DNA of 61,464 nt, counting the filler, from Basidiobolus ranarum (Eukaryota), in NCBI GenBank assembly GCA_040143965.1. It is 6 parts of 6 records of this genome, joined end to end, with 100 filler letters (N's around TTAATTAATTAA, not from the genome) between each part and the next. Parts side by side here need not be neighbours in the genome. Positions count along the whole stretch, not along the records: positions 41,074 to 51,221 come from JASJQH010007609.1; 5 more parts are not named here. One strand, 5' to 3'. The notes under the pieces were generated by a model that did no database searches, was not told the origin of the DNA, and saw only the letters and a list, made by a program, of their open reading frames with translations. Both the position numbers and the translations under genes were made by a program. Of the stretch, positions 10,190 to 60,676 are shown piece by piece. The first letter of the stretch is position 1; each line of letters starts with the position of its first letter.

Positions 10190-10289
10190 NNNNNNNNNNN
10201 NNNNNNNNNNNNNNNNNNNNNNNNNNNNNNNNNTTAATTAATTAANNNNNNNNNNNNNNNNNNNNNNNNNNNNNNNNNNNNNNNNNNNN
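10190..10289. other. Artificial contig spacer (N run with TTAATTAATTAA)
   Basis: 100-nt N block with a central linker giving stops in all six frames; same block recurs five times. Confidence 0.97.
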
Positions 10290-12467: not shown

Positions 12468-13694
12468 TTATAGATTTAGCATATAGTTTGACAAAAGATA
12501 AACCAAGCTCAGTAGTGTAAAGCAACATTGAATGGATGTAGCTGAATTCTCAACTAATTTATGTCGGACGTCAGCAGCCTGGCCAAGACTACTTTTAGTA
12601 GTAGAAGCATTTGCAACGGTGGATGTGGATGTGAAAGAGGTCGATGTTGAAGTTGTAGTAACCACGGTAGCAATTGGAAAGTTTTGAATCTGATTTCCAT
12701 TATGTTTACATTCAATTTTAATGTCGTCAAAATAAGCTTCAAAGACAGTGTTTGGATTACTCCAATTCGTTGGTCCACCAGCCCAGCTCATGGTTCCATT
12801 TCCACCACTATTACTATCCCAGATACCAAATTGAACCTGGGCTAGTTGAGATGGATACCTGTGTTCCTTTGTCTTTTCATCGTATGTAGTGTTCTTTCTC
12901 AGGAGCGTTCTGGCCAGTTTACTGTTTACATACCACTTGATAGATTCTTCTTCCCACTGAATTTGATATTCATTAAAGCTTCGTGCAGTGTTATCATTGA
13001 CCGACACTGACATGCTGTGACGGTTATCATGAAGATCTTCGTGATAGTAATAATTGGTTTGCACTTCATTTGGACTTTTCCCAACCCACTCAAAGTCTAT
13101 TTCGTCACCCTCGGGACTACGAATGATAAAGGAAGTAACCACGCCAGGAGCTACAGAAGCGGTCTTAACTTTAGCGGTAACGGTGCCATATTGAATCCAT
13201 CTGATGGAAGATACAGTAGCACCAAACCCTTCTCGATCATGCTCTTTGTTTGTTTTGTTGCCAAGCTTCATACTCAAAACAAGCTCTTGGTTTTTGATAG
13301 CAGCATAACTTGGAGTATAATTACTGTACCAGTGATAATCTCCATTGGGATTTCCATTGAATACTCCAAATTCGATCAGATCATTCTTACTGAAATCATC
13401 CGAAAAGCTTTCACACTGGGGTTTGGGATAGCAGCTGTTAGGTGAATAACTGTTACTTGGATCACAAATGTTTGCAATGCAACGATGACCTAAAGGATTG
13501 CAGTAGCCACCAGAGCAGCACGGGACAGACTCATGACAAATAGAGCCATTGTGGTAATTTGCGCATCCAGCAGTGGCTTGATTGATACAAAGAACCAATA
13601 GAATCAAGATACATAACTAGATAGAAGAGAGCTGTTAGTGTGTCAATTCAATGTAACTGAGAATCAAGAAGACAATTACCTTTTTGACAGCCAT
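12468..13694 (-). CDS. UTR2: GH16 Crh/Utr2-type chitin-glucan transglycosylase, copy A
   Basis: Exon 1 13694-13680 (MAVKK), exon 2 13616-12468; signal peptide, Cys-rich chitin-binding-like N-terminus (CHESVPCCSGGYC), catalytic DEIDFEWVG, GIWD and WAGG, Ser/Thr-rich tail and hydrophobic GPI-like C-terminus. Confidence 0.92.
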
Positions 13695-17579: not shown

Positions 17580-18881
17580 CTATAAGTTCAACACATAATG
17601 AGTGAAAAAATAAATTGCTCCAAGTAGTACAGAGCTTGCTTTGACCGATGGAGCTGAATTTCCATGCGCATGGGTCTCAACTGTTTGATGTGCTACGCTA
17701 GCACTCAAGCCATTAGATGAACTTAAACTGGCTGGGGATGGGGGGAGCAAAGAAGTGTCTGATACTGAAGTAGATTTGGATTCACTAGAGCTACTGGCCT
17801 TAGACGAAGCTTCGATACTAGTTGATTTGGTGGTGGAAGTAGAAGCAGGGATTACACTAGTTGGAAAGAGCTGAACTGCGTTACCATTGCTTTGACATTC
17901 AATTTGAACCGAGTCAAAGTAGGCCTTGTAAACTGTGTTAGGATTACTCCAATTAGTTGGTCCACCAGCCCAGTACTCAGTTCCATTGGAGCCACGACCA
18001 CCATCCCAGATACCAAATTTGACCTGAGCTAGTTGAGATGGATATTTGTATACTTTTGACTTTTCATCGTAGGTATCCTTCTTGTAGAGTGTTCTGACCA
18101 GCTTATTATTTACATACCACTTGATAAACTCCTCTTCCCATTGGAATTTGTATTCATTGAAGCCAGCCGAAGTGTCACTGCCAACAGAGGTCGAATTCAT
18201 ATTTCTCCAATCCTTTTGGTCTTTATAGTAGTAGTAATTGGTTTGAACATCATTTGGACTTTTGCCAACCCATTCAAAGTCAATTTCATCACCCTCGGAA
18301 CTACGAATGATAAAGGAGGTCACAACACCAGGAGTTACGGAAGCAGTCTTAACTTTGGCGGTAACAGTGCCATATTGAATCCATCTAACATAGGATACAG
18401 TTGCACCTACTCCTTGCAGATTTCCTTCACTGTTTTTTTTGGTGCCAAGTGTCATACTTAAAACAAGTTCATCATTTTGGATGACTGCATGATGCTTGTC
18501 AAATTCACTAACCCACTCATAACCTCCCTTGGGATTTCCATCGAACTCCGTAAATTCAATCAGATCGTTCTTACTAAAATCCTCTGAAAAGCTTTCACAC
18601 TGAGGTTTAGGATAGCAACTGTCTGGTGAATAACTGTTACTGGGATCACAGATGGTTGCTATACAATGGTGACCAAGATGAAAACACCAGCCATCGGAGC
18701 AACAAGGGGTATACTCCGGGCAAGTAGCATTGTTGTTTTTACATATAGCATTGACTTGGCTACTACTGAGAATTAGCAGAGTTAAGAGAGATAACTAAAT
18801 GGAAAAGGGGAGAAACCGTTAACTTATTGAAAAGTAGATGGAATTGGAAATTAGGATGTATATCACCTTTTTAACCGCCAT
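17580..18881 (-). CDS. UTR2: GH16 Crh/Utr2-type chitin-glucan transglycosylase, copy B
   Basis: Exon 1 18881-18867 (MAVKK), exon 2 18794-17580, open and in frame with the listed ORF; CPEYTPCCSDGWC domain, DEIDFEWVG, Ser-rich tail, GPI-like end; same intron position as copy A. Confidence 0.92.
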
Positions 18882-20464: not shown

Positions 20465-20564
20465 NNNNNNNNNNNNNNNNNNNNNNNNNNNNNNNNNNNN
20501 NNNNNNNNTTAATTAATTAANNNNNNNNNNNNNNNNNNNNNNNNNNNNNNNNNNNNNNNNNNNN
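20465..20564. other. Artificial contig spacer
   Basis: 100-nt N block with TTAATTAATTAA. Confidence 0.97.
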
Positions 20565-22650
20565 ACACATCTACTTCCCTTTGCTATTCCCCCCAGTGCA
20601 GAAATGGTTAACGGTTGGGGAAAGAGTGAAAAAGATTATGCACCGTACTTGCCAGACTCTTTCCTCAAAGAACTCGATGCAGAATTACTTGAAAATTTTA
20701 ATAGTTAAAGCAGAATTTAACGCGGTTATATATATATACTAATTTATTACTATTTATCTTATCCATATCATTGAGCCATCGGTGCTTCTTTATGATCTTC
20801 AGTGCAACATATACTCACATGTTGTTAATTCAGCTATTTTTGATCGCTTTGGGAGCTGTTAGTATTGTATTCACTACCATTTGCCTGAGTTTCCCATTTA
20901 TTTCTTTTCTTATGTTACATTGTTTCTTTGATCTGTACTGTTGAGAACATGTTATACTCTTCTACGTGGAATATCCTCTTGATCGATTTGATTATTTCCA
21001 TAGACAGTTATTCGACTAGTTTACTTGTTAAAATAATCATACCATTACACTTGTATTCCCATGGAAAATCTCTTTACACTTCTTCAACCCTATTGTTACA
21101 ATGAAGAATGATGCGGACCATTGAGCTTGTAGAGAATTTTTTATAAACATTTTCTTGAGCCTTTAGGAGTAGAAAGCTTCCTGCATTTACCAACATAGCT
21201 AGAATAATATTCAGGGGATTTCACATACGCGTAAGTATTTCCCTACCGTACGATAATCCGAAAGCACCCCTAGTTGGAACTAGATTCTATAACCGATTAG
21301 TTCCATTAGTTCAGTCCCTGATTTAAGCTGTTCAATAGAAAGTATTGTTATCTGTGTGCTGAAATAGAATAGTCATTTAATATACAATGAGTGAACTCGG
21401 TTTTGCGAGCTAACACTTGAACTGCAACAGAGATGACCAATAACGGCTCTTCCACATGAAGAGATACATACAATAAAGTTTGGTGGAAACTAAGAGAATA
21501 CTGCAAAAAGTTTTGCTCCTCTAGCATGAGGTAGAATAGGATAGCTGCATGTACAATCAAGAGGGAATCCTTATCTCTCCAGTTTCAAACGCCAATGAAC
21601 TTATACTGACAACCAGCAATAAATTCAATACATTAACTTTAAATCACATGTAGCCCAAAACGGTCTCATCTATTTGATATCTCGATCTCACCATATGCTA
21701 CATGCTCCTTGCCAGAGCATGCCCAAATTCCCGGGAGTAGAGGGCAATCCCTCGACACAAGATAAGGGTTGGAATAAGGAATGTCGAGAAACAGGGAGGT
21801 TACGTGCATCCTTGAAATGCTAGTAAGTCTTGGAGGCATCTCTAAGTGGTGAAGTTATCAACAATCAGTTAAGGTTAAATGGAACCAACACTAATATGCT
21901 CGAGGGCGACGCCTATCCATACAAGGCTCAAGTGGCTGGTACTCAGGGTTATATCTGGGTTGTCATATGAGTGTAATCAATGCTTCAAACCATACTAGGT
22001 CATATGGTAATAACCCGGATCCACGTGGTTGGTTGCCCATCTCAATGGTTTCATTTGTTAATTTTGGACATGAATCTGGTGGCATTGTTGACATCTTTTC
22101 ACATGGACTCATAGGGTGTTGTATTAGAGTACAGGTAAAAAGGAAGCTACCCCGGGGAGGTCTCATGGCTACTGGAACTCAAACTCTGATAGTGTATGTA
22201 CTATCCCTTTATTCACCAGCTGATATTACACTATTATATTTAGCGGATTTGGCGAAATATGTGAATTAACTATTTCTTCATTCAGCCTTTAGGAGTGTTT
22301 TATAGGGGCGCTTGGAGCAACTTCATCGCCATGCTTATCTATGACCACATTCTTGTTTAAGAAAATTAATATCAATTGAGTCAGTGATATAAGCTTGCTG
22401 GCGTACGATATTGATGTGCTTATCAGTGTCCGACATAATTGCTATCTTAGGTAACCCACTGAATCAATTAGGAAAGTAAATAGATCAGTCAAAATAAGGT
22501 CCCGTTATTCATTCAGTATTCCGATCTATTATTACACATCATGGTTGCTAGAGTGAGATCGAATAGGTAGGCCGTCATGAACATTTATTTAGACCTCGCT
22601 TCACATTATCCCCCAACTTTTATCCTTCTATCCACGCTCGAGTAGCTGAC

Positions 22651-24294
22651 ATGACCGGTTTAAAATTTAGTGAACCGAAGCGTACACATGAATGTGAGCC
22701 ATTACTACCAACTGCTGGGAACTCCAAGCGTTACGGCCCACTCAGTGCTGATGATGATATCCCCACCATGGGAAAGATAATCCCTTTGAGGCGCAACAAG
22801 ACAATGATTGAGAAAAATAAACAAGCGAACAACCTTATTGACAAGTTTACTGGAATCGCCATAGAAGGCGAAAGTACTACAGGCGGCGTATTATTCAACC
22901 TTCTAAAGTTCAATACCAAAAGAAATACTGCTGCCAAAGCTAAAAAGCACTTTCCTCCGAGCCTGAACGATGGACGTGACCAAATCGAAGATATCTCTTG
23001 TAGCTCAGATGAGGATACCATAACCGAAAAGCAATTGGAAGCGAGGGCCGAGGCCACCGCGTTCATCGCTGATATCTTGTTGAGACAAGACTATCTTATT
23101 CTTTTATCTAAAGCTATGGTGGTCCTTGGGTCACCAGCACACCGTCTCGATGATAACATGAGTCGAGCCTCTGCTGCTCTAAATGTCCAGTCTTCATTTG
23201 CTTTCTTGCCAGGAGTCATTATGATTTCGTATGGTGATGAGCAGACACATACAAGTGAAACTCATATCATTAAGGTGGATCGCGGATATAATATGTACAA
23301 ACTGGATCAAGTAAACACCATATCAAAGCACGTAATATATGGACATATCAAAGTAGAAGATGCTTATGAGGCTTTGGAGAAGGTAATGGATTCTGAAGAC
23401 CTGTATTCATGGTGGTGTGATATTCTAGTCTTCGGTGCCTCCTCCTTTTTAATCGCCCCTTTAGCTTTCCAGGGTAATTGGGGAGAGGCTTTTGTTAGTG
23501 GCATTCTTGGTACACTCATTGGTATTCTGAATCAAATTTCAAAGAAACTCTTCAATTATGCAAATGTGTTCGAAATCTCAGCAGCGGTTATAACATCTGT
23601 GGTTGCTACTGGTCTTCGCCATCAAATTTGCTATCAATCCGTGATCATGTCTTCAGTATCTATGTTGCTACCTGGTCTTGGTTTAACCACATCTGTGATG
23701 GAACTGGCGTCACGTAATTTAATTTCCGGGGTAGTGCGCCTGGTATATTCCCTGGTAGTAGCTTTCATGCTAGGATTTGGTTTATCTTTTGGATCACAAA
23801 TGTGGCGAGCAATTGATAAGGATAAGAGTGATGGAATGGAATGTCTTCCACCGCTTCCCGAATACTGGACTTTCATCCTGTTGCCCGCCACTTCGATCCT
23901 TTATTGTATCAATCTTCAAGCACATGCACGTCAGTGGCCAATGATGATTTCTCTATCTTGTACTGGGTTTGCCATATCGCAATATTCGTCACAAGTTCTT
24001 GATCCCACAGCTTCAGCAGCCTTTTCATCATTCTGTCTTGGTTTGCTTGGTAATATCTACTCACGTATCACCCATGCACCAGGATTTGCCGCTACTCTGT
24101 GCGGAGTGATGTTATTGGTACCAGGAGGTTTAGGTGTGCGTGCGGTATATGAATCATTTGGTCAAAATGGGAATGGTACAGCGCTTGCCTTCGAGATGAT
24201 CGTTATAGCACTAAGTATATCAGTGGGATTATTTGTCAGTACATTGTTGGTATATCCTACTGGTAAAAGAAGAACCGCTCTGTTAACATTTTAA
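22651..24294 (+). CDS. PRM10: Prm10-like ThrE-family (threonine/serine exporter-like) membrane protein, copy 1
   Basis: Intronless 547-aa ORF; GSPAHRL, FAFLPG, THTSETH, LLPGL....ELASRNLISGVVRL and LLVPGG motifs; about ten hydrophobic segments. Confidence 0.9.
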   Translation: MTGLKFSEPKRTHECEPLLPTAGNSKRYGPLSADDDIPTMGKIIPLRRNKTMIEKNKQANNLIDKFTGIAIEGESTTGGVLFNLLKFNTKRNTAAKAKKHFPPSLNDGRDQIEDISCSSDEDTITEKQLEARAEATAFIADILLRQDYLILLSKAMVVLGSPAHRLDDNMSRASAALNVQSSFAFLPGVIMISYGDEQTHTSETHIIKVDRGYNMYKLDQVNTISKHVIYGHIKVEDAYEALEKVMDSEDLYSWWCDILVFGASSFLIAPLAFQGNWGEAFVSGILGTLIGILNQISKKLFNYANVFEISAAVITSVVATGLRHQICYQSVIMSSVSMLLPGLGLTTSVMELASRNLISGVVRLVYSLVVAFMLGFGLSFGSQMWRAIDKDKSDGMECLPPLPEYWTFILLPATSILYCINLQAHARQWPMMISLSCTGFAISQYSSQVLDPTASAAFSSFCLGLLGNIYSRITHAPGFAATLCGVMLLVPGGLGVRAVYESFGQNGNGTALAFEMIVIALSISVGLFVSTLLVYPTGKRRTALLTF

Positions 24295-26533: not shown

Positions 26534-28240
26534 TTAGAACATCATCATTGCAGTTCTCCTCTTACCAAATGGATATACAAGTAAACTAGCAACAAAGAGT
26601 CCAACAGCAATACTCAAAGCCACCACGATCATTTGAAAAGCTAGAGTGGCTCCTCCAGAATTGTCATCCGTTCTATCTTTCTCATCGGTAAACAGAGCAA
26701 GGAATCCTTTAACACCCATACTACCGGGTACAAGTAGCATAGTACCGCTGAGAACAGCTGCAAACCCAAATCTATGCGTGATACGTGAGTAGACATTGCC
26801 GAGAAAAGCCACAACAAAGGCAGAAATAGCGGCACTAACTTGGGCACCAAGTGGTCCCGATGTGAAATAACTCACAACAAACCCAACAATGCTCAAAGTC
26901 AATATTGGAGGCCATTGACGGAAGGTTGCGTTCAAGAAGATACAGTAGTTTACAGCCAAGAGAGGTAAAAGTAGGAAGTACCACCATGCATTAATGGCAT
27001 GAGTATCGGAGACCATTTTAGAACCATCAATAGATTTCCAAATACTAGTTCCAATATTCAGTCCAAACCCAAGCATAAAAGCACTCACTAACGCAAATAC
27101 AAGTCGTACAACACCAGATATTAGATTCTTCGATCCCAGTTCAATGACAGATGTAGTCAACGATAAACCTGGTAAAAGAAGCGTAACACCTGATAACATA
27201 ACTGAACTATAATTTGCATATTTATGAAGCGCACTAGCCACAAAGGAACAGATTATAGCAGCCGTGATCTCAAAGACATTGGAATAATTGAAAATTTTGG
27301 ATGAAAGAATACTCAAGCAGCCAACACAAAATCCGAGTGCACCACTAAGTAAAGCATCAATCCAATCGCCATTGAAGGCCAAGGGGCAAATGAGGAAAGA
27401 ACAAAGGCAATAGTTGAGAATCTGGACCCACCATGAATAGACTGGCTTCTCTTCCATCATTTCTTCTAGAAGCTCATATGCAACTTCGACACTTAACTCT
27501 CCATAGATCACTTGACGTGAGATTTCGTAAGCACGTTCGAGTTTATCCATATTATATCCACGATCCGCTTTCAATATATGAGTATCACTTGTATGAGTAT
27601 CGGCATCACCAAAGGAAATAATAGCTACTCCAGGTAGAAAAGCAAATGATGTTTCGATATCCAATGCGTTGGAAGCTAGTGACATATTGTATTCAAGACG
27701 ATGAGCAGGTGAGCCAAACATAACCATAGCTTTGGAAAGAACCATCAAGTAGTCTTGTTTCAACAGTAAATCAGCGATATTGGCTGTAATATTCAGTTGC
27801 TCCTCTAAAGCATAGGCAGTATATCCATCATCAGCGAAACTGCTTCTGTTTGAAGCCAAAGGTATAGTTGATCCAGAGTGAGTGCGGTTGTCTTTAAATA
27901 TATCTCTTGGATTAGGTGTGGAGTAACCGGACTTGCTATGACCTCCTCCTTTGAGCATGCTTAGTCTAAGTAATTGTGTCAAAATTCCACCTCCAGTCTC
28001 GGATTGTGCAAAACGGTTTTTGCGGTTTGTGGAGAATTTGGCAACCATTTCTTTAGCTTCGATGTTTTTTTGTATCACCGTCTTATTACGTTGTAATGGC
28101 TTGACATCTTCCTGATCGGGGATATCCAGAGATGAAGAGGAGTTCTTCTCGGTGGTGTCGTCGACCTGAGTGTCCGTGGAGGATTGGTTGTCATCGTCAT
28201 CAATGGCAAACTTTGTTTTCTTTTGCTCGGGGTTTGTCAT
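26534..28240 (-). CDS. PRM10: Prm10-like ThrE-family membrane protein, copy 2
   Basis: Intronless; first ATG at 28240 (MTNPEQ); same motifs as copy 1 (GSPAHRLE, FAFLPG, THTSDTH, LISGVVRL, LLVPGS; ends GKRRTAMMMF). Confidence 0.9.
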   Translation of the reverse strand: MTNPEQKKTKFAIDDDDNQSSTDTQVDDTTEKNSSSSLDIPDQEDVKPLQRNKTVIQKNIEAKEMVAKFSTNRKNRFAQSETGGGILTQLLRLSMLKGGGHSKSGYSTPNPRDIFKDNRTHSGSTIPLASNRSSFADDGYTAYALEEQLNITANIADLLLKQDYLMVLSKAMVMFGSPAHRLEYNMSLASNALDIETSFAFLPGVAIISFGDADTHTSDTHILKADRGYNMDKLERAYEISRQVIYGELSVEVAYELLEEMMEEKPVYSWWVQILNYCLCSFLICPLAFNGDWIDALLSGALGFCVGCLSILSSKIFNYSNVFEITAAIICSFVASALHKYANYSSVMLSGVTLLLPGLSLTTSVIELGSKNLISGVVRLVFALVSAFMLGFGLNIGTSIWKSIDGSKMVSDTHAINAWWYFLLLPLLAVNYCIFLNATFRQWPPILTLSIVGFVVSYFTSGPLGAQVSAAISAFVVAFLGNVYSRITHRFGFAAVLSGTMLLVPGSMGVKGFLALFTDEKDRTDDNSGGATLAFQMIVVALSIAVGLFVASLLVYPFGKRRTAMMMF

Positions 28241-30722
28241 TATGTGATAGTTGTGGAGAGGATTCAAGGCAAGGTCTGAATTGAACTAAAGGTTGGAGTA
28301 AATTTGTATAGATAGCTTTTAAGAAGCTTTGTTGCAAAGTGGCGACGTAAACTATTCGCAAGCGATTTAGTAACAGAGAATGAGAAGATGGGCCACGGAA
28401 ATTTCCGGTAATATAAAGTATCTCTGAGAGAGCGCAGAGAGATAAGAATCTTTGAATGATGATAGAGGTGAGATACCTTGGGTTTATATAGGGATTTCCA
28501 TAGCATCCAAATGCTTTCACTGAAATCATTCTCACGTTTACTGGCTTAAGCATTCAAGTAGGATCCATTTGATTGTATCGCAATCACATCCCAGTTTCCT
28601 TTTTGAACGATCCATGATTCCATACGAACAATAAGCTATATGTATCTAGTCGATACAATAAAATCATCGAGAAACTCAGAGCAACATCAGTATGGGGAGA
28701 ATGTTTCTGTTATTTTTATTCCGTCCTACCAAAGCGGTACGATATCAAATCCACCCCAAGGATTAATATAGCTCGAATGGGTGAGTCCATTGATACACAT
28801 ATATGCATCATGACTTACAACGGCTGGCATTTCTCGCAGCAACTTTCGGTTTGATGAACTGGTTGACAAGATGATTTGAAACTCAAGAATAGTTCGCCAT
28901 TGTATGCGTAATAATGGACTTTCATAGTGAGCAGATTCGGCTCAATCCCTACCTTGACTGACTCCGAAGACCCGATTCATCGTTTGTGTGATTGATAATT
29001 CGTTCGGACCCTCTACGGCAATATAATGGAGTATGACGATTGGTAGGTGAACTCCAATCCTTAACGCCATTGAGTATCTCTGGACGAGGGTAAATCTCAA
29101 ATTGGGTATCAAGATCTCTGGCAAAGATGCCAACCTACTGGCGAGTGATTCGCCCATTGCTAGTCCAGTGCCTGGTATGTCTCCCCTAAAACGCGATCAG
29201 TCCTAGGGTGATGTAGTGGCTTATTTCCTATCGATTTATTAATTTTGACATAATCATCGGCTTCTTTCCACATTGCCCTTTGAATGCCACTGATGCCCTG
29301 TATTTGGGAATGATTATGACGTCGTATATACCCAGGTTGGCATGCATATGAAATTCTACGATTTATCTCATCAGAAATCTGAACATAACAAGGCAACCAT
29401 CTGCGATAGCAATCAGTGAAATAATGATCACATTCATATGGATCATCAATCTATGTCATCATTGGGTTCAGGTACTAACTCGGATTGAAGACATAATTCA
29501 GGCTCCAGAGATATGGGGTTAGGAAAGAACAATAAGACGCTGCTTAGAAGATTCTTGCTGTTGTCTGAAACACTTCCATTCTTAATTCCCTCGGAGTCGG
29601 AATATGCACACTTTGTTGGAGTCCAGCAATATACATTGTGATTATCCCATTAGAAGACACCAATGCATTACATCAGATTCGCCTTTCCTCAGAATGGGAA
29701 ATGGCAAGACGACATTATTATGACATATGCAAAATTCCAAATGACCACTAATTATTTCGGTTGGAATGATAAGACTCAGAATAGCAACACACAACTCTAT
29801 TATTATTATATTCTATGTTCCATCAATGGCTTTTTCGAGCACGAAAATCCTGATGATGCTTCATATGCGTCGTGTTTCGCAGAACATAAATTGCATTGAA
29901 TCTTTGCAAATTCTCACTCGCCGAAGATGCTTGTGGGAGGAGAAGATTCGATTCCTTACCAAACAGGCCTGCGAGTAACCCATCCAATAAACTTGAGAAA
30001 CATTTATATCAAGTACCCAGACTACACCCTGCCTGCAAGCAGTCCTTTTTCCTAATGAGGTTAAGTGGTTTAAATATTGCACAAAATTGGTTGACTATAT
30101 GTGACATTTCACGAATCCCTAGATCCTGTAGAATTTGATACTCTGCTATCATAAAGCTAGGTTGTAATCTTCATATAAAGATCAAATGTGACATGAAAAG
30201 TAGGGGCTACGCTGACATGTACCATGCAATTCGAATGCAATTCTGAACATAATATTCCAGTTTTCTGATATATATTAGCGTCTTGCCTCAAATGAATCTC
30301 TGAAACCTGGTACACTGTAAAGTCCCAAGTTTGATATATATAGTTATTTTGGAATGGTTCAAGTCGGAGCCAGGAGAGTATTTCTCTTCTACTGAATAGA
30401 CCGATCCTTAGGATAGTGTGCTCATTTCAAGGTGGAAGTGACAATTATAAAGTCTTGTAAATAAAATATACTCGCCATAGCAGCTGCCAAATCTAATCTG
30501 TAGAGTCTATATGATTTAGGCGCAAAGAATTCCTGAAATGTTCTCGGTGAATTGTTTTTCGCTAGGAAGAGCTGAAAAGGAAACCAATCAAGGGGGAATT
30601 CGGTGATTAAGTTTACCACACTCCTTTTTCACAAGACTCCAGACGCCCCATACCTTTCATGGGTCTTTTATGGGATCTACACGCCCCAAGGAATAATGGT
30701 AGGCACAATTAGAATTACTGTT

Positions 30723-30822
30723 NNNNNNNNNNNNNNNNNNNNNNNNNNNNNNNNNNNNNNNNNNNNTTAATTAATTAANNNNNNNNNNNNNNNNNNNNNN
30801 NNNNNNNNNNNNNNNNNNNNNN
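30723..30822. other. Artificial contig spacer
   Basis: 100-nt N block with TTAATTAATTAA. Confidence 0.97.
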
Positions 30823-40973: not shown

Positions 40974-41073
40974 NNNNNNNNNNNNNNNNNNNNNNNNNNN
41001 NNNNNNNNNNNNNNNNNTTAATTAATTAANNNNNNNNNNNNNNNNNNNNNNNNNNNNNNNNNNNNNNNNNNNN
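40974..41073. other. Artificial contig spacer
   Basis: 100-nt N block with TTAATTAATTAA. Confidence 0.97.
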
Positions 41074-45419: not shown

Positions 45420-46325
45420 CTAGTTCTCGTCACCAAGAATAGCATCCTTCTTTGCTTGGATACGCTCAGCACGACGGTCACGGGCAGCCTTAGACTTAAG
45501 ACGATGAGCTTCAGCTTGATCAGCGATGAGCTTAGCTCTGAGCTTCTCAGCCTTAGCCTTGTGGATGAACTCCATCAAGACGCGCTTGTTCTTGAAGACA
45601 TTACCTTTAGATTTCATGTAAAGGGAATGGTACAAGTGCTTGTCGATCTTGCCAGCTTCTCTGTACTTTCTAAGCATACGTCTCAAGACACGTTGACGAC
45701 GCATCCAGAGGACTTGAGTAGGCATACGAGCCTCGGCAGTACCTCTACGCTTACCAGTACCGGTGTGACGTCCCTTACGCTTAGCAGCGAGCTTTTCACG
45801 AACTCTGAAGCGAGAGTGAACAACGTTGGGTTTCTTGATGATGAGACCATCCTTGATAAGCTTTCTAACGTTTTGACCTAATGGATGAAATTTATTAATG
45901 CCAATTAAACAAAAAAAATATTCACTCCAATATACTTACGAGAGTTAGCGTTAGCGATTTCGCTGATTTCATTGGGGTCAATCCAGACTTTTCTTTTACC
46001 GCACTTAAGGACGCTGGCGGCCAAACGTTTCTGACTGCTCAAAGAAACCCTTTTGAAAAATTGGTTATTAGATAAGAGTTAAGGTGGCGGTTGAGGTATT
46101 CTATGAATATTCTGTCAAAATATTGCTAACTAAAATAACACGGGTTCCCTCAAGAAATTCCCATGCTTATAGGTGGGAAATGACATCTGATGTCAAATTA
46201 CAAATGTCCAGATCCGCCTTTCTTGGGAATATATAGCAAAGTAACTTGATGAAACTATCTATCTTCAGAGTGGTATTGTATTGCCGAATATATGTATGTT
46301 TGCATACACAAACTTTAACTTACAT
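45420..46325 (-). CDS. RPL19: 60S ribosomal protein L19 (eL19)
   Basis: Exons 46325-46324 (AT), 46049-45940 ([28 protein letters not shown]), 45877-45420 ([18 protein letters not shown]...[13 protein letters not shown]). Confidence 0.98.
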
Positions 46326-46694: not shown

Positions 46695-48750
46695 TCAATT
46701 GAAGATTTGCGAGATATGGGTTCGATGAAGTGGATTATGAGTTCTAGAACGAGGTGAATGTTTTGGCGACCTATTATGTCTGATAGAAGTGTATGACAGT
46801 TTAGATCTTCTTTTTGGTCTGTCGACGGTCCCATTAGTAGTACGGAAAGAAAGTACAGGTGGTGCAGTCGAATGTGATTTCGTTAAGATATTGCGAAAGA
46901 TTGGATTCAGCGAGCCCTGGGATTTACAATCAATGTCAAAATGCTCACCAAGGTTGAGGCTTTGGCCTAATTTTAATGGAGACTTGTCAGCGTCAGATGA
47001 TTGTCCAACAAGTGTATCCGTATCGTTCAAAATCCTATCGAATTCTGAAGGATGTAAGTTCAATTTTTCTTCAAATCTTGGCGGCTCGATCCCGGCAGCA
47101 ATGTCTGGTAGTATGGGATTGAATTCAGTCACTGACATGTCGACTAGACCTAAACCACTAGAAAGCGTTTGCTTTAGTTTGAAGCAACGTTGTTCTACAT
47201 CAGAAGGAGGCTCCAGGAATCCACTTATTATACTGTCATTGGAAGTTCGAATCCGTTTAAAGGAAGAGTTTGAAGAAGAGTGGTAAATGGTAGACTTTGT
47301 AAATTCTTTTGAATAATTAAGATTCGCTTCTAATCCATCAGAAAATAACTGATCTTCGTCCATGTATTCAGATCCTCTTTTGATGTTTGGAGTAGAGTGA
47401 CTCTTTGAGAGACTGTTACTACTGAACTCAGTTGATTTTGAAAGTGTTATTCGGTTAAATGAGTTAAGCGGATGATTTTCATGCCCGACACTTTGATAGG
47501 GTTGAGCCTCCAAGTGATCGTGCGTCTGGCATGATTTGTCAGTCATCAAAGGTGCACGTATAGGTGGAGGAGAAAGTGAATGTAAAGGTTGATCTAAATT
47601 TTTTTTGAAGCATTGGTGCACTCGGACCCTCTTCTATGGGATAACAAGCAGCTTTCATTATCGAAGGCCGGTGGTTCTTGTCGTGTTGTATCTAGATATA
47701 CATTTGGTGAATGAATATTAAATGAGGGAATGTATGCAAATTTTACCAATTTCATCTCTTCTACGATAGACCCAGGTCATCAGTCCAAGTAAAAGGAACA
47801 AGATACATGATCCAATAGTAATAAGAGCTATTCCCCACGGAGGTACTTTCTCGTGCTTTACTGGAAGCAAGCCTAAATCGATATTGTTTAAAAATAGGAA
47901 ATATACCCAGTGGATATGAGGTGATCTTATACCAGATGCACATGTTGAAATTACCGCGGCTGAACTACAAGCTGGAGTTCCGGTACTTCGACATGTAATG
48001 TCATTTCCGCCAAGCTCGCAAATACCCTGATCAAGTAATTCGAAAGGAGGGAGAACACCGGCCAAGCGGTTATTACTTAGGCCTCTGTGTGGTTCAAAAT
48101 ATAGTAAATTATGTGTAAACGTAGTGACTCTAATAAAAAGATTACATAAAGACGGCATTTTATCAGTTTAGATATATCGTTGGGCACCTCGCCACTAAAC
48201 TGGTTATCATTTAAATTCCTGTAATTGAAGCGAAATTGTCAGTGAAGTAAAGGCGATAACAGGGGCAAATTTTGATTCTCACAGATATCCTAATGGTAGA
48301 TCAAACATCTCTACAGGAAGAGGCCCAGAGAATTGGGAGCGAGCGAGAGATCTAGTTATTCCAGAATCTGCAATAGAAAAGAACTTCCAGTATCTTAATT
48401 TTCACTTGCAAATATTTGAGTCTTCTTAGGTTACTGATGGAGGAAGGTATAAGCCCGGTAACTTTGGTATCCACAAATGTAATTCCTGATAGATAGTCTA
48501 GTTTTCCTAGGTCGTTGGGAAGCTTCCCAGTGATATTTCCCATAAATACTAGTTGGGCAACCCGATTATTCTCACATATGATACCGAGAAATAGGCAGCA
48601 ATCTCTTGGCTGATCCTTATCATTGCCAAGGTCAACAGAAATGTCAGTGAAAGAGGAATTTACTAGGTATGTATAGTCTTCATTTAATGAACTCGTTGCT
48701 GAGGAATAGTAAAGAATGGTTGGGAGATATATAGTGATTTTGAAGAGCAT
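46695..48750 (-). CDS. Single-pass membrane protein with plant-type extracellular LRRs and a Ser-rich cytoplasmic tail (model has possible 1-nt indels)
   Basis: Exons 48750-48410, 48351-48283, 48218-48146, 48084-47933, 47872-47747, then the 46695-47621 ORF region. Cys cap CCLFLGIICENNRV; repeats ITGKLP, VTGLIP, QFSGPLP, NQFSGEVP, NRLAGVLP; TM IALITIGSCILFLLLGLMTWVY followed by RRR. The join to the tail is inferred. Confidence 0.75.
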
Positions 48751-49575: not shown

Positions 49576-51177
49576 TCATGCGCTTGAAAGTGTGCTCTTG
49601 ACACCTTCAATGGCGTCACAAAGCTCCTCAGCAGAATTCTTGGACCCAACCTAAAGATGATATTTAATGACCAAACAAAGGAGAAACATGTCACTGTATC
49701 AATAAATACCTTGATTGTGTATTGAACAATCTTATGGCCTTCTTCAAAGGCAACAATCCTTACATACTTGTCAGATACCATCTCACATTTCATATCCGCG
49801 AAAATCACTACGTTCAAAATGGCTTTTAAAACTCCTTCAGTTCTCATAACTATCAACCATTTGGAAAGTTAGAGAATGTGGCAATAACATTATAAATTGT
49901 AAAGAATATTTCTCACTGAGACGAGCACTCTTTTTATCGTTATGCTTAACATTCAACTTCAGTGAGCCTATTCCACGTTCTTTCCATCCCTTTGTCTCCG
50001 CATCCATGACAAATAATTTTGCTCTAACCTTAAAGCAGATAATGAAAGAATCAACTACACGCTCGGAAAATACTACGCATTTTTAGACTACATACCTGGA
50101 AAAGAGTATCTTCACCTTCTTCGCCAGTAGTAACTATAAATGTGCAAATGGGAAAATTAGAGTCACGAAGGTAAATATAGAAATGAGAAAAAGAAGCGTT
50201 ACCTTCGACTTTTTGAAGATCCATCTTAGGGATGGCTCCTTGGCCAATTTCATTACTTGCCGCGCCATTTTCCTTGCTCTCATCAGCATCTAACGCTGAC
50301 GAACCGGACATTAATAGTGACTCGAATGAGGCTGGCTTGTCTTCTGAACTAGAAAAAATCGATGTTCCGGCAGCAGGAGTACCTCCAAAAGAGAATCCAC
50401 TAAATTTAGATCCGAAAATTGACTTGGGTGCATCACCGTTAGTTTCTGGGTTATCAACCTTGGTATCTTCGTTCGACTTTTCTACTTCTTTTTGTAAACT
50501 TTCAGAATCAGTTGTCTGTGGGACAAGACTCTCATCGTTAGGCAACACGCTTTCCTCTTCCTTAGTTACTTTATCGACTGTCTTAGTACTATTGTCCTCT
50601 AAAGTTATCTCCTCCTCAACCACGGTTTTTGGTTGAGCGGTATCTTCTTCAATCTCAGTCGAAGTTTCACGACTAAAAATTTGATTGAATGTTAACTATG
50701 CTCAAATAAATAAAATCAAGGCTTTAACTCAAGAGTAAGGGAAGATTTAAACATACGATCTATGGAAATAAATAGGTTCCATATTTAGCATGAAATACGT
50801 ATTGAAACTTTCATTAATAGCTGTAGAACACTTACTTCTTTGAAGGGACACTAGCTTCTTCCTAAGTAAATAAAACCGAGCAAATAAAAGCAAGGAATGA
50901 ATTTTCAAGTTTCTAATACTTTATCTTCCTTTATACTTATTATTAACGTACTTCCACTTCTTCACTTCTTTCACGTTTACGACTTGTAACACCGACGGAT
51001 TTCTCCTGAGTTTCTATTTCACTATTCAATCTGGAAAGTGAATAAAGTTGAATATACCGACTAACTTTAATCAAATTGAGATAAAAGATTAGGAATGGAA
51101 GTTTTCACTCACTCTTCAGAAACTACATTCTCCTCCTTTTCGAGCTCCTTATTGGGATTTTGTTCAACAGAAGACAT
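49576..51177 (-). CDS. YRB2: Ran-binding-domain protein, Yrb2/RanBP3-like
   Basis: Starts MSSVEQNPNK at 51177; RKRER NLS-like motif, acidic region, FG-like SIFGSKFSGFSFG, RanBD VTTGEEGEDTLFQVRAKLF..WKERGIGSLKLN..MRTEGVLKAILN; stop at 49578-49576; multiple short introns. Confidence 0.85.
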
Positions 51178-51221: not shown

Positions 51222-51321
51222 NNNNNNNNNNNNNNNNNNNNNNNNNNNNNNNNNNNNNNNNNNNNTTAATTAATTAANNNNNNNNNNNNNNNNNNNNNNN
51301 NNNNNNNNNNNNNNNNNNNNN
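51222..51321. other. Artificial contig spacer
   Basis: 100-nt N block with TTAATTAATTAA. Confidence 0.97.
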
Positions 51322-51763
51322 AAAGATGAAAAAACTTCACTCCCTTTTTTTGACCAAGAATTTCATAAGATATTTACCCGCAGATATCTTAGAAATACCT
51401 GACCTTGTTCTACAAATATCCGAGGATTTCTTAACCTTTCATTTGGATGGGGTAGAAAATAATTTGGTGCCTTTACCTTCTCTAAGAGAAATTACTGGAC
51501 TGCTAATTCTCAAAAATACCACAACCAAAACTCTCCCTCAACTTCCTATTAGACTTGACCAATTTCTTCGAGCGAATACATCCCACCATTGTACCATATG
51601 TCATCGAGAAGTTCTCGAATCGGGAGTAAAAATTCTCGAGAAATCGAGATTGTTTGGAATTGACATTCCCTTCATGCATATAGTATGTTCTACACATTGC
51701 TTGCGAATCATTCAAAGTAGAAATAAGAAATTGGATTCACTACAAATGGAATTTTCAAATTGA
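51322..51763 (+). CDS. 3' end of an LRR protein with a Cys-containing C-terminal region (5' part lost at the contig edge)
   Basis: LHSLFLTKNFIRYLPADI LRR, then LPSLRE and CTIC...CSTHC, an architecture reminiscent of LRRC58-like proteins. Confidence 0.65.
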
Positions 51764-60049: not shown

Positions 60050-60676
60050 ATGCCACCAAAGTCCGATCCCAACGAAGTTAAAATTAGTAAGTGAACACAC
60101 GATTCAACTACGATAAACGCGCCTACTAACTCCTCTTGCTTATTTTTAAAGTCTACCTTAGAGCCACCGGTGGTGAAGTTGGTGCTTCTTCCGCTCTCGC
60201 TCCTAAGATCGGTCCCCTTGGTCTTTCCCCCAAGAAGGTCGGTGAAGATATCGCCAAGGCCACCCAAGATTGGAAGGGTCTTCGTATTACCATTCAATTG
60301 ACCATCCAAAACCGTCAAGCTGCTGTCTCCGTTGTCCCCAGTGCTTCATCCCTTGTTATCAGAGCTTTGAAGGAGCCCATCAGAGATCGTAAGAAGGAGA
60401 AGAACATCAAGCACAGTGGTAACATCACTTTGGATGACGTTATTGAGATTGCCAGAACCATGCGTTTCAAGTCTTTGGCTCGTGAGTTGAAGGGTACCGT
60501 CAAGGAAATCTTGGGTACTTGTTTCTCAGTTGGCTGTACCGTTGATGGTCAAAGCCCTAAGGATCTCTCTGACTCTATTGATGATGGAGAAGTCGAAATT
60601 CCAGTAAGTAATTAATATTTAAATGCGCCCGCTTAACCTTGAATAACACCTTTACGTTTATTTGTAGGAAAACTAA
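60050..60676 (+). CDS. RPL12: 60S ribosomal protein L12 (uL11)
   Basis: Exons 60050-60086, 60152-60603, 60668-60676; [37 protein letters not shown] branch point in intron 1. Confidence 0.98.

Follow-up and report, generated by a model that had tools for sequence, protein, structure and literature searches.

Does a fungus from an early-diverging lineage possess a plant-type leucine-rich repeat (LRR) surface receptor? This question is raised by one locus of Basidiobolus ranarum (assembly GCA_040143965.1), found in a stretch of 61,464 nucleotides made of six joined parts of the genome and analysed here as a whole (hereafter the window). The original prediction, made from the DNA alone, had proposed that an LRR receptor-like protein devoid of a kinase domain is encoded at 46695..48750. 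The locus is on the minus strand (48750-46695), to which all coordinates of the LRR gene given below refer, and an ATG (48750-48748, directly past an in-frame stop) and a stop codon (46697-46695) were indeed found at its two ends. Our preferred explanation, to which we give an even chance, is that of an under-annotated six-exon gene that would encode an intact 549-residue type I membrane protein.

Without splicing, the locus displays several short open frames broken by stops, and an open reading frame (ORF) of 312 codons that ends at 46695. We enumerated the introns junction by junction, initially with GT donors only and later with GC donors permitted. The preferred model, model B, comprises six exons and five introns of 58, 64, 71, 60 and 153 nucleotides (one GC-AG and four GT-AG), which yield a single open frame from the ATG at 48750 to the stop at 46695. 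None of the exons harbours an in-frame stop, and three junctions independently restore the LRR register. The GC content is 0.33 for intron 1 of model B, 0.28-0.39 for introns 2-5 together with the intron 1 of a rival model A, and 0.37-0.48 for the exons of model A.

The two models differ by their first intron. Exon 1 (48410..48750) codes for the N-terminus, the N-terminal cap, LRR1, LRR2 and the start of LRR3, as evidenced from its ORF, PDB matches, Atlas score, sequence alignment and AlphaFold2 model. As long as only GT donors were considered, no solution worked except the 67-nucleotide GT-AG intron of model A (48434-48368), giving a protein of 546 residues; it cuts ten exon 1 residues that match plant LRRs very well, and the third repeat is poor. 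When GC donors were permitted, a 58-nucleotide GC-AG intron with the consensus GCAAGT donor (48352..48409) kept those ten residues and brought repeat 3 into register. Using an LRR profile made of the six plant LRR receptor-like kinase (RLK) rows of the alignment described below, with the window's own row excluded, we obtained 62.1 bits for model B (E 2.5e-21) versus 42.9 bits for model A, a gain of 19 bits. Model A, which had been our earlier working model, hence became the second choice, and the hypothesis of a pseudogene frameshifted at the first junction was dropped because the GC-AG intron removes the apparent break. GC-AG introns represent a small minority in fungi and usually have a strong GCAAGT donor, and intron 1 is best read as one of them on the basis of its sequence.

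The public annotation of this locus is a 132-residue protein that results from read-through of exon 1 to a stop at 48352 (P0042), which NCBI and UniRef contain as a single-member cluster. Gene predictors often disallow GC donors, and the use of such a predictor would explain this truncation, which the GC-AG intron appears to have caused.

The other four introns have GT donors. Splicing is needed at the end of exon 2 (48283..48351; remainder of LRR3 and start of LRR4) because a stop directly follows the donor, and intron 2 (48219..48282; 64 nucleotides, GT-AG, donor GTGAGA, with a CTGAC branch-like site) restores the register of LRR4. Exon 3 (48154..48218) encodes LRR4 and the start of LRR5. 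Among the 12 single-intron solutions listed for intron 3, it is the 71-nucleotide one (48083..48153; GT-AG, weak donor GTCTTT, GC 0.28) that preserves the register of LRR5. Exon 4 (47933..48082), with LRR5 and a four-Cys C-terminal cap, has a coding score of +0.25 per codon. It is followed by intron 4 (47873..47932; 60 nucleotides, GT-AG, donor GTATAA, GC 0.30), which is in frame and free of stops, with an in-frame coding score of -0.14; its retention would add 20 residues. Exon 5 (47747..47872) encodes a juxtamembrane stretch, a transmembrane (TM) helix and an RRR motif. In the long-tail model, intron 5 (47594..47746; 153 nucleotides, GT-AG, donor GTAAAA) then leads to exon 6 (46695..47593), which encompasses about 299 residues of a Ser-rich tail, its basic end and the stop codon.

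Judged from this predicted sequence, the ectodomain (~200 residues, approximately the size of that of SERK/BAK1) is composed of five plant-specific LRRs flanked by two Cys caps, the first of which resembles the plant type. The hydrophobicity of the N-terminus (residues 1-18, 48750-48697) is modest, with 10-residue Kyte-Doolittle means of 1.0-1.55 in the first seven windows, and a small-residue cleavage context can be discerned by eye after residue 18. In the N-terminal cap (about 48609-48565), Cys 51, 52 and 59 show the C-x6-C spacing and the invariant Gly of the plant cap. LRR1 (48564-48493) and LRR2 (48492-48421) are the first of five units of 24, 24, 23, 21 and 24 residues, which correspond to the plant-specific repeat (about 24 residues, LxxLxLxxNxLSGxIP); their number is that of the spliced model, in which they form a capped, SERK-type ectodomain. 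The C-terminal cap (about 48023-47937) contains four Cys within 29 residues ahead of the membrane. Two N-x-S/T sites are present in the ectodomain. The hydrophobic N-terminus, the Cys cap, the approximately five repeats fitting the plant consensus and the Cys-rich juxtamembrane cap that had been proposed at the outset were thus all found.

The assignment of this ectodomain to the plant-specific class, also part of the original prediction, agrees with several types of analyses. A phmmer search of the PDB with exon 1 (115 residues) yielded 82 distinct sequences at E <= 0.01, the best 60 of which are, by name, plant LRR receptor ectodomains or plant LRR proteins. The top match is FLS2 (5.8e-38, over 12 repeat stretches), and a single colinear stretch including the cap and both repeats aligns with each of SERK1, SERK2 and BAK1, with E values of 2e-8 to 1e-6 (2.6e-8 over residues 19-112 for SERK2). 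In the Atlas, exon 1 scores 0.95 to plant LRRNT_2 and LRR_1 clusters, with 10 out of 10 best hits sharing the family or clan. A word-based search with exon 1 returned 246 candidates, nine of which passed: six LRR-kinases (five named plant proteins and an unnamed one) and three LRR-only proteins from JGI or Logan. We aligned exon 1 with eight matches from this search, including six plant LRR-RLKs, using MAFFT; the alignment is colinear from the leader via the cap to the second repeat, and it provided the rows for the profile by which model B was preferred. An AlphaFold2 model based on the exon 1 alignment has a mean predicted local distance difference test score (pLDDT) of 72 overall and block means of 80-93 between residues 51 and 115. 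A structural comparison with SERK ectodomains had been suggested as a check. Foldseek ranked OsSERK2, TMK1, SERK1, BAK1 and PEPR1 at the top for the model, which covers exon 1, and this model superimposes on OsSERK2 with a root-mean-square deviation of 1.4 A over 62-66 columns, but no Foldseek match was found at E <= 0.001 (best 7.3e-3).

Past the ectodomain, a single TM helix is predicted at residues 221-244 (47837-47766). Its Kyte-Doolittle mean reaches 2.48 over 19 residues, no other segment contributes to the five top-scoring windows, and the RRR motif (47765-47757) follows directly, as a putative stop-transfer signal, in line with the one helix and RRR motif that had been proposed. The cytoplasmic part of the long-tail model is 305 residues long, with 15.1% Ser, 7.5% Pro and 6.6% Thr, and 17 of its last 50 residues (46847-46698) are K, R or H. 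The initial description of a ~300-residue Ser/Pro-rich tail with a basic end therefore holds for its length, its Ser content and its basic end, but the tail is not strongly Pro-rich. Neither the 312-residue tail ORF nor the ORF containing the TM helix matched a Pfam family at E <= 1, indicating that no kinase is present, as had been stated initially. At the level of sequence, the product shows one TM helix with an RRR stop-transfer and is devoid of a kinase and of any other known domain.

The tail ORF is not the result of chance. No ORF of 312 codons was reached in 200 shuffles of the window or 2000 shuffles of the locus. The codon usage of the tail scores +0.084 per codon, compared with -0.03 +/- 0.05 for ORF-conditioned random sequences, 21 out of 2000 of which reached that value; the scores of nine training genes are higher (0.16-0.65). 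Tail homologues were sought among longer proteins, with none in 2174 word-search candidates. The lone match of a HMMER scan was P0012, an 872-residue repeat protein aligned through one 70-residue stretch present seven times, with 25-28% identity, and we rejected it as a chance match inflated by repeats. Metagenome matches to the tail, with 2 confirmed loci for 67 pattern matches (35% identity over 34 residues, contigs of 89-109 kb), were likewise attributed to chance. No self-match of the tail was found although the proteins of this genome are part of the collection, and hence no public gene model includes it. We also observed a 181-codon ORF antisense to the tail ORF (46741-47286, plus strand), with a coding score of -0.003 per codon, which we consider a by-product of the sense frame.

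The tail is on the same strand as the TM exon and directly downstream of it, with the donor of the 153-nucleotide intron right after the RRR region, and it can be joined in frame through that intron. On sequence grounds, this ectodomain-tail join is possible. We envisaged three readings of the join: a long tail by way of the 153-nucleotide intron, a short 37-residue tail by way of a 55-nucleotide intron, perhaps as an alternative isoform, and a frameshift at a run of eight A residues (47606-47599).

A number of observations weigh against an intact, long-tailed, plant-type receptor gene. Regarding splicing, the 153-nucleotide intron exceeds each of the other four more than twofold in length and has an A-rich 3' end, and its last 98 nucleotides (47691-47594) are exon-like, with a GC content of 0.43 and a frame that is open over 33 codons. 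Introns 3, 4 and 5 have donors that differ markedly from the GTAAGT of the RPL12 and RPL19 genes of the window, and the public model ends at 132 residues, at intron 1. Regarding the ectodomain, Pfam gave only LRR_14 at 20 bits for exon 1 alone, below the cut-off of 40 (E 3.3e-4), and no LRRNT_2 at E <= 1. A 50-residue piece containing the C-terminal cap had three matches in the PDB, all with E >= 0.9; the nearest plant match is pollen receptor-like kinase 3, at a non-significant E value of 1.8. Bacterial LRR proteins match the whole model about as well as plant proteins do by BLASTP (P0009, 3e-11), and the repeat class is thus no proof of plant ancestry. There is no fungal orthologue among the nine proteins that passed of the 246 exon 1 candidates, which is weak evidence of its absence since the search was word-based. 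Regarding the tail, the HMMER scan of 1.84 billion representatives found no protein that contains it, the Atlas gave no usable match, with a recognition value of 987 in the range of shuffled proteins, and AlphaFold2 run on the tail alone gave a mean pLDDT of 40.6, with no residue at 70 or above. The low pLDDT and the Atlas value would fit disorder and a non-functional ORF equally well. Finally, the ligand, the topology and the signalling of this protein are all features that we infer.

The first of the other explanations is that the gene codes for a short-tailed LRR receptor-like protein (RLP), a reading that we consider unlikely but worth keeping in mind. The 55-nucleotide intron would be used, with its acceptor at 47692 (47746-47692), and the 37-residue tail would end at the TAG 47596-47594, in the classic arrangement of an RLP; the 312-codon ORF would be used in a minor isoform only, or would constitute a distinct or a former coding unit. 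With this splice, 33 open codons lead to the stop, just after the A8 run. The 55-nucleotide intron resembles the other four (58-71 nucleotides) in size, its GC content of 0.27 is intron-like, in keeping with the exon-like composition of the next 98 nucleotides, and plant RLP tails are short. Conversely, the 31 extra codons have a neutral score of -0.07, and a 312-codon ORF that begins in the last 40 nucleotides of the gene and that shuffles do not reach is left unexplained. If the tail were a separate gene, its first ATG would lie only 48 nucleotides past the stop, and its 283-residue protein is absent from the collection. We also looked for second introns that would lead from the 55-nucleotide form into the tail frame and rejected them, as they were too short, of GC or AT type without a consensus donor, or GT-AG introns of 131-251 nucleotides with weak donors.

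A decaying or silent gene, derived from a former gene for a plant-type LRR membrane protein, appears fairly improbable to us; a frameshift at the A8 run, located past the TM exon and ahead of the tail, would be one example. The exon-like stretch and the tail frames overlap exactly at that run, and one extra base would link them. Such decay would be consistent with the annotation that ends at 132 residues, with several weak donors, with a tail coding score that is low relative to those of the training genes, and with the fact that neither orthologues nor paralogues were found by the exon 1 word search and by tblastn searches of the window, in which the best non-self hit of the exons had an E value of 0.052. 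Arguing in the opposite direction, a complete open frame can be obtained with canonical splice sites only, the sole apparent break in the ectodomain vanished once GC donors were permitted, and no exon has an in-frame stop. The other genes of the window are intact, with a ThrE protein colinear with its Basidiobolus orthologue over 100% of its length, which indicates that the assembly is not error-prone.

It is very unlikely that the annotated 132-residue product is real and represents a small secreted LRR protein translated from an unspliced transcript, after the manner of the secreted LRR effectors of fungi. Its exact sequence is in NCBI and UniRef, and a 2025 preprint documents secreted plant-like LRR proteins in fungi (10.1101/2025.08.22.671746). 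However, such a product would consist of only the cap and about 2.5 repeats followed by 17 non-LRR residues, and the downstream exons hold three more in-register repeats, the Cys cap and the TM helix. The truncation would also be explained by the frequent exclusion of GC donors by predictors. As for foreign DNA, in the form of plant or bacterial contamination or of a recent transfer of a plant LRR gene, the top sequence matches are plant LRR-RLKs and bacterial LRR proteins are comparable by BLASTP, but identity to plant proteins is only 25-44% over the repeat units, and the fungal-type genes on either side (RPL19 immediately downstream), the equal GC content and the short introns similar to those of the neighbours make such an origin extremely improbable. 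An old transfer of the LRR gene may have taken place, as far as the sequence can tell.

The genomic context is that of a Basidiobolus genome. GC content is uniform across the window, and the ORFs neighbouring the LRR gene are of fungal type: two GH16, two ThrE/Prm10, an arrestin, a mitochondrial carrier, RPL19 and RPL12. A PDB search with the ribosomal protein uL11 was uninformative as to the placement of the organism. Proteins named from Basidiobolus meristosporus and B. ranarum share 79% identity with one of the ThrE proteins along its entire length, and the next relatives of that protein are from Piptocephalis and Syncephalis (40-45%); the two ThrE proteins of the window are 50% identical to each other. 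The GH16 and ThrE/Prm10 ORFs are found as side-by-side pairs, at 12468-13616 (-), 17580-18794 (-), 22567-24294 (+) and 26534-28285 (-), and since each of the two ThrE proteins has closer Basidiobolus counterparts, they are old local or genome-wide duplicates. RPL12 (60051-60170, plus strand) and RPL19 (45900-45960, minus strand) harbour one short intron each, of about 62-66 nucleotides, with a GTAAGT donor, and that of RPL12 carries a TACTAAC branch site. None of the five LRR gene introns uses GTAAGT. Counts of GTNNNN hexamers provided no usable donor consensus, with 35 GTAAGT observed for 40.9 expected.

Other observations in the window include five 100-base spans with paired 44-base N runs 12 bases apart (440 N in total), which recur every ~10.25 kb at 10190-10289, 20465-20564, 30723-30822, 40974-41073 and 51222-51321, a spacing that makes the window look joined together from, or masked at, blocks of ~10 kb; the LRR gene is wholly inside one block. 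Right after the last of these, a 145-residue ORF (51326-51763, plus strand) resembles a cytoplasmic-type LRR protein over its first 30 residues, as judged by eye, and Pfam found no match in 51278-51763, N included. Just upstream of the LRR gene, an ORF at 49837-50082 (-) resembles, by eye, part of a Ran-binding domain.

How does this gene product compare with known proteins? Within fungi, the original prediction had contrasted it with the receptors standard in Dikarya, a frame that does not apply here: in the NCBI taxonomy Basidiobolus belongs to Basidiobolomycota, outside Dikarya, and the relatives of its ThrE proteins also point to an early-diverging fungus. Fungi are commonly described as lacking LRR-type surface receptors, as in the survey by Soanes and Talbot (2010), which reports LRRs combined with one TM helix in only 6 of 49 fungi and retains, after curation, five genes from four species (Batrachochytrium, two zygomycetes and Postia), with no other domain (PMC2939053). 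Those proteins and our LRR gene product are alike by description, with an LRR domain and one TM helix, and Basidiobolus is not among the fungi named in the LRR-TM section of that article. Plant-like secreted LRR proteins (sLRRs) have a patchy distribution across fungi, including two Mucoromycota and one chytrid, according to the 2025 preprint; one of them, ZtLRR, has BAK1, FLS2 and LRX as its best structural matches and binds the TaBAK1 ectodomain in yeast two-hybrid assays (10.1101/2025.08.22.671746). From their description there, the likeness resides in a plant-like LRR domain in a fungus, but sLRRs are secreted single-domain effectors of plant pathogens without a TM helix, unlike the Basidiobolus model with its TM helix and tail. 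Only the 132-residue annotation would lack these elements; the spliced model is not a secreted protein with a single LRR domain. Basidiobolus is not known as a plant pathogen. Our literature search on Basidiobolus and leucine-rich repeats found no account of such a gene, and that on LRRNT_2 in fungi returned, among the matches listed, plants or nucleotide-binding LRR receptors (NLRs). Given the plant-like LRR proteins and LRR-TM genes already reported in these two fungal studies, the designation of this gene as a new system was too strong (PMC2939053; 10.1101/2025.08.22.671746).

The closest resemblance is with plant SERK/BAK1 and LRR-RLP proteins, with which the model shares a hydrophobic stretch at the N-terminus, a C-x6-C cap with a conserved Gly, five plant-specific LRRs, a putative Cys-containing C-terminal cap and a single TM helix. 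The differences are as follows. SERKs carry a kinase, and the LRR gene product does not. RLPs have short tails of a few dozen residues, as opposed to 305 cytoplasmic residues in the long-tail model, and a GxxxG motif in their TM helix, which we did not see by eye in ours. Unlike in plant SERKs and RLPs, repeats 3 and 4 have 23 and 21 residues, Pfam LRRNT_2 is not matched and the host is a fungus. Outside plants, oomycete and protist LRR-TM proteins such as the Phytophthora sojae PsRLKs also combine a plant-like LRR ectodomain with one TM helix; the PsRLKs are reported to carry kinases, in contrast with the LRR gene product (PMC8254037). P0008, one of the matches of the exon 1 search, is 583 residues long and contains a TM helix and a short tail in addition to two LRR modules with caps. 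With only 27-31% identity over the repeats, it was rejected as an orthologue. Fungal single-pass wall and osmotic sensors of the Wsc1, Mid2 and Msb2 types signal through non-enzymatic tails that recruit partners. They resemble our model in the proposed mechanism only, that of a single-pass protein with a non-enzymatic, partner-recruiting tail; their ectodomains are Ser/Thr-rich and mucin-like or WSC rather than LRR, and there is no sequence relation.

By analogy with these systems, a mode of action can be proposed for the 549-residue protein. The N-terminus would act as a signal peptide, and the LRR solenoid would consequently face outward. Small LRR ectodomains bind partners such as proteins, peptides or other surface proteins, and the surface of the solenoid might do likewise. 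The Ser-rich tail of 305 residues, joined through the 153-nucleotide intron and probably disordered, could carry the signal inward, as the original prediction had proposed, by recruiting cytosolic partners via short phosphorylatable motifs; with no enzyme in the cytoplasmic part, signalling would have to proceed by recruitment, as in the fungal single-pass sensors. As the shared donor with the nearer acceptor would give a short-tailed, RLP-like form, two isoforms are possible. The most far-reaching version of this proposal is that an early-diverging fungus has a working, kinase-free, plant-type LRR surface receptor, with one donor and two acceptors producing a short RLP-like form and a long form whose tail, with a basic end reminiscent of a nuclear localization signal, recruits partners or is released. 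We regard it as a rather distant prospect.

As far as can be deduced from the sequence, this analysis adds a GC-AG intron, a 549-residue model, the recognition that the public annotation is truncated and, in an early-diverging fungus, a predicted SERK-sized, membrane-anchored, plant-type LRR protein whose tail is an orphan. Because a GC-AG intron has apparently truncated the public model, fungal surveys based on predicted proteomes may underestimate the number of similar genes. The known fungal exceptions are few uncharacterized genes in early-diverging lineages and the secreted plant-like LRR effectors of plant pathogens. A membrane-anchored plant-type LRR protein of SERK size in Basidiobolus would add a case outside plant pathogens, and it would raise the question of whether receptors of this class predate plants or were acquired. 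If it proved to be a working kinase-free receptor, fungi would not be wholly devoid of LRR surface receptors, and Basidiobolus could be used to study them.

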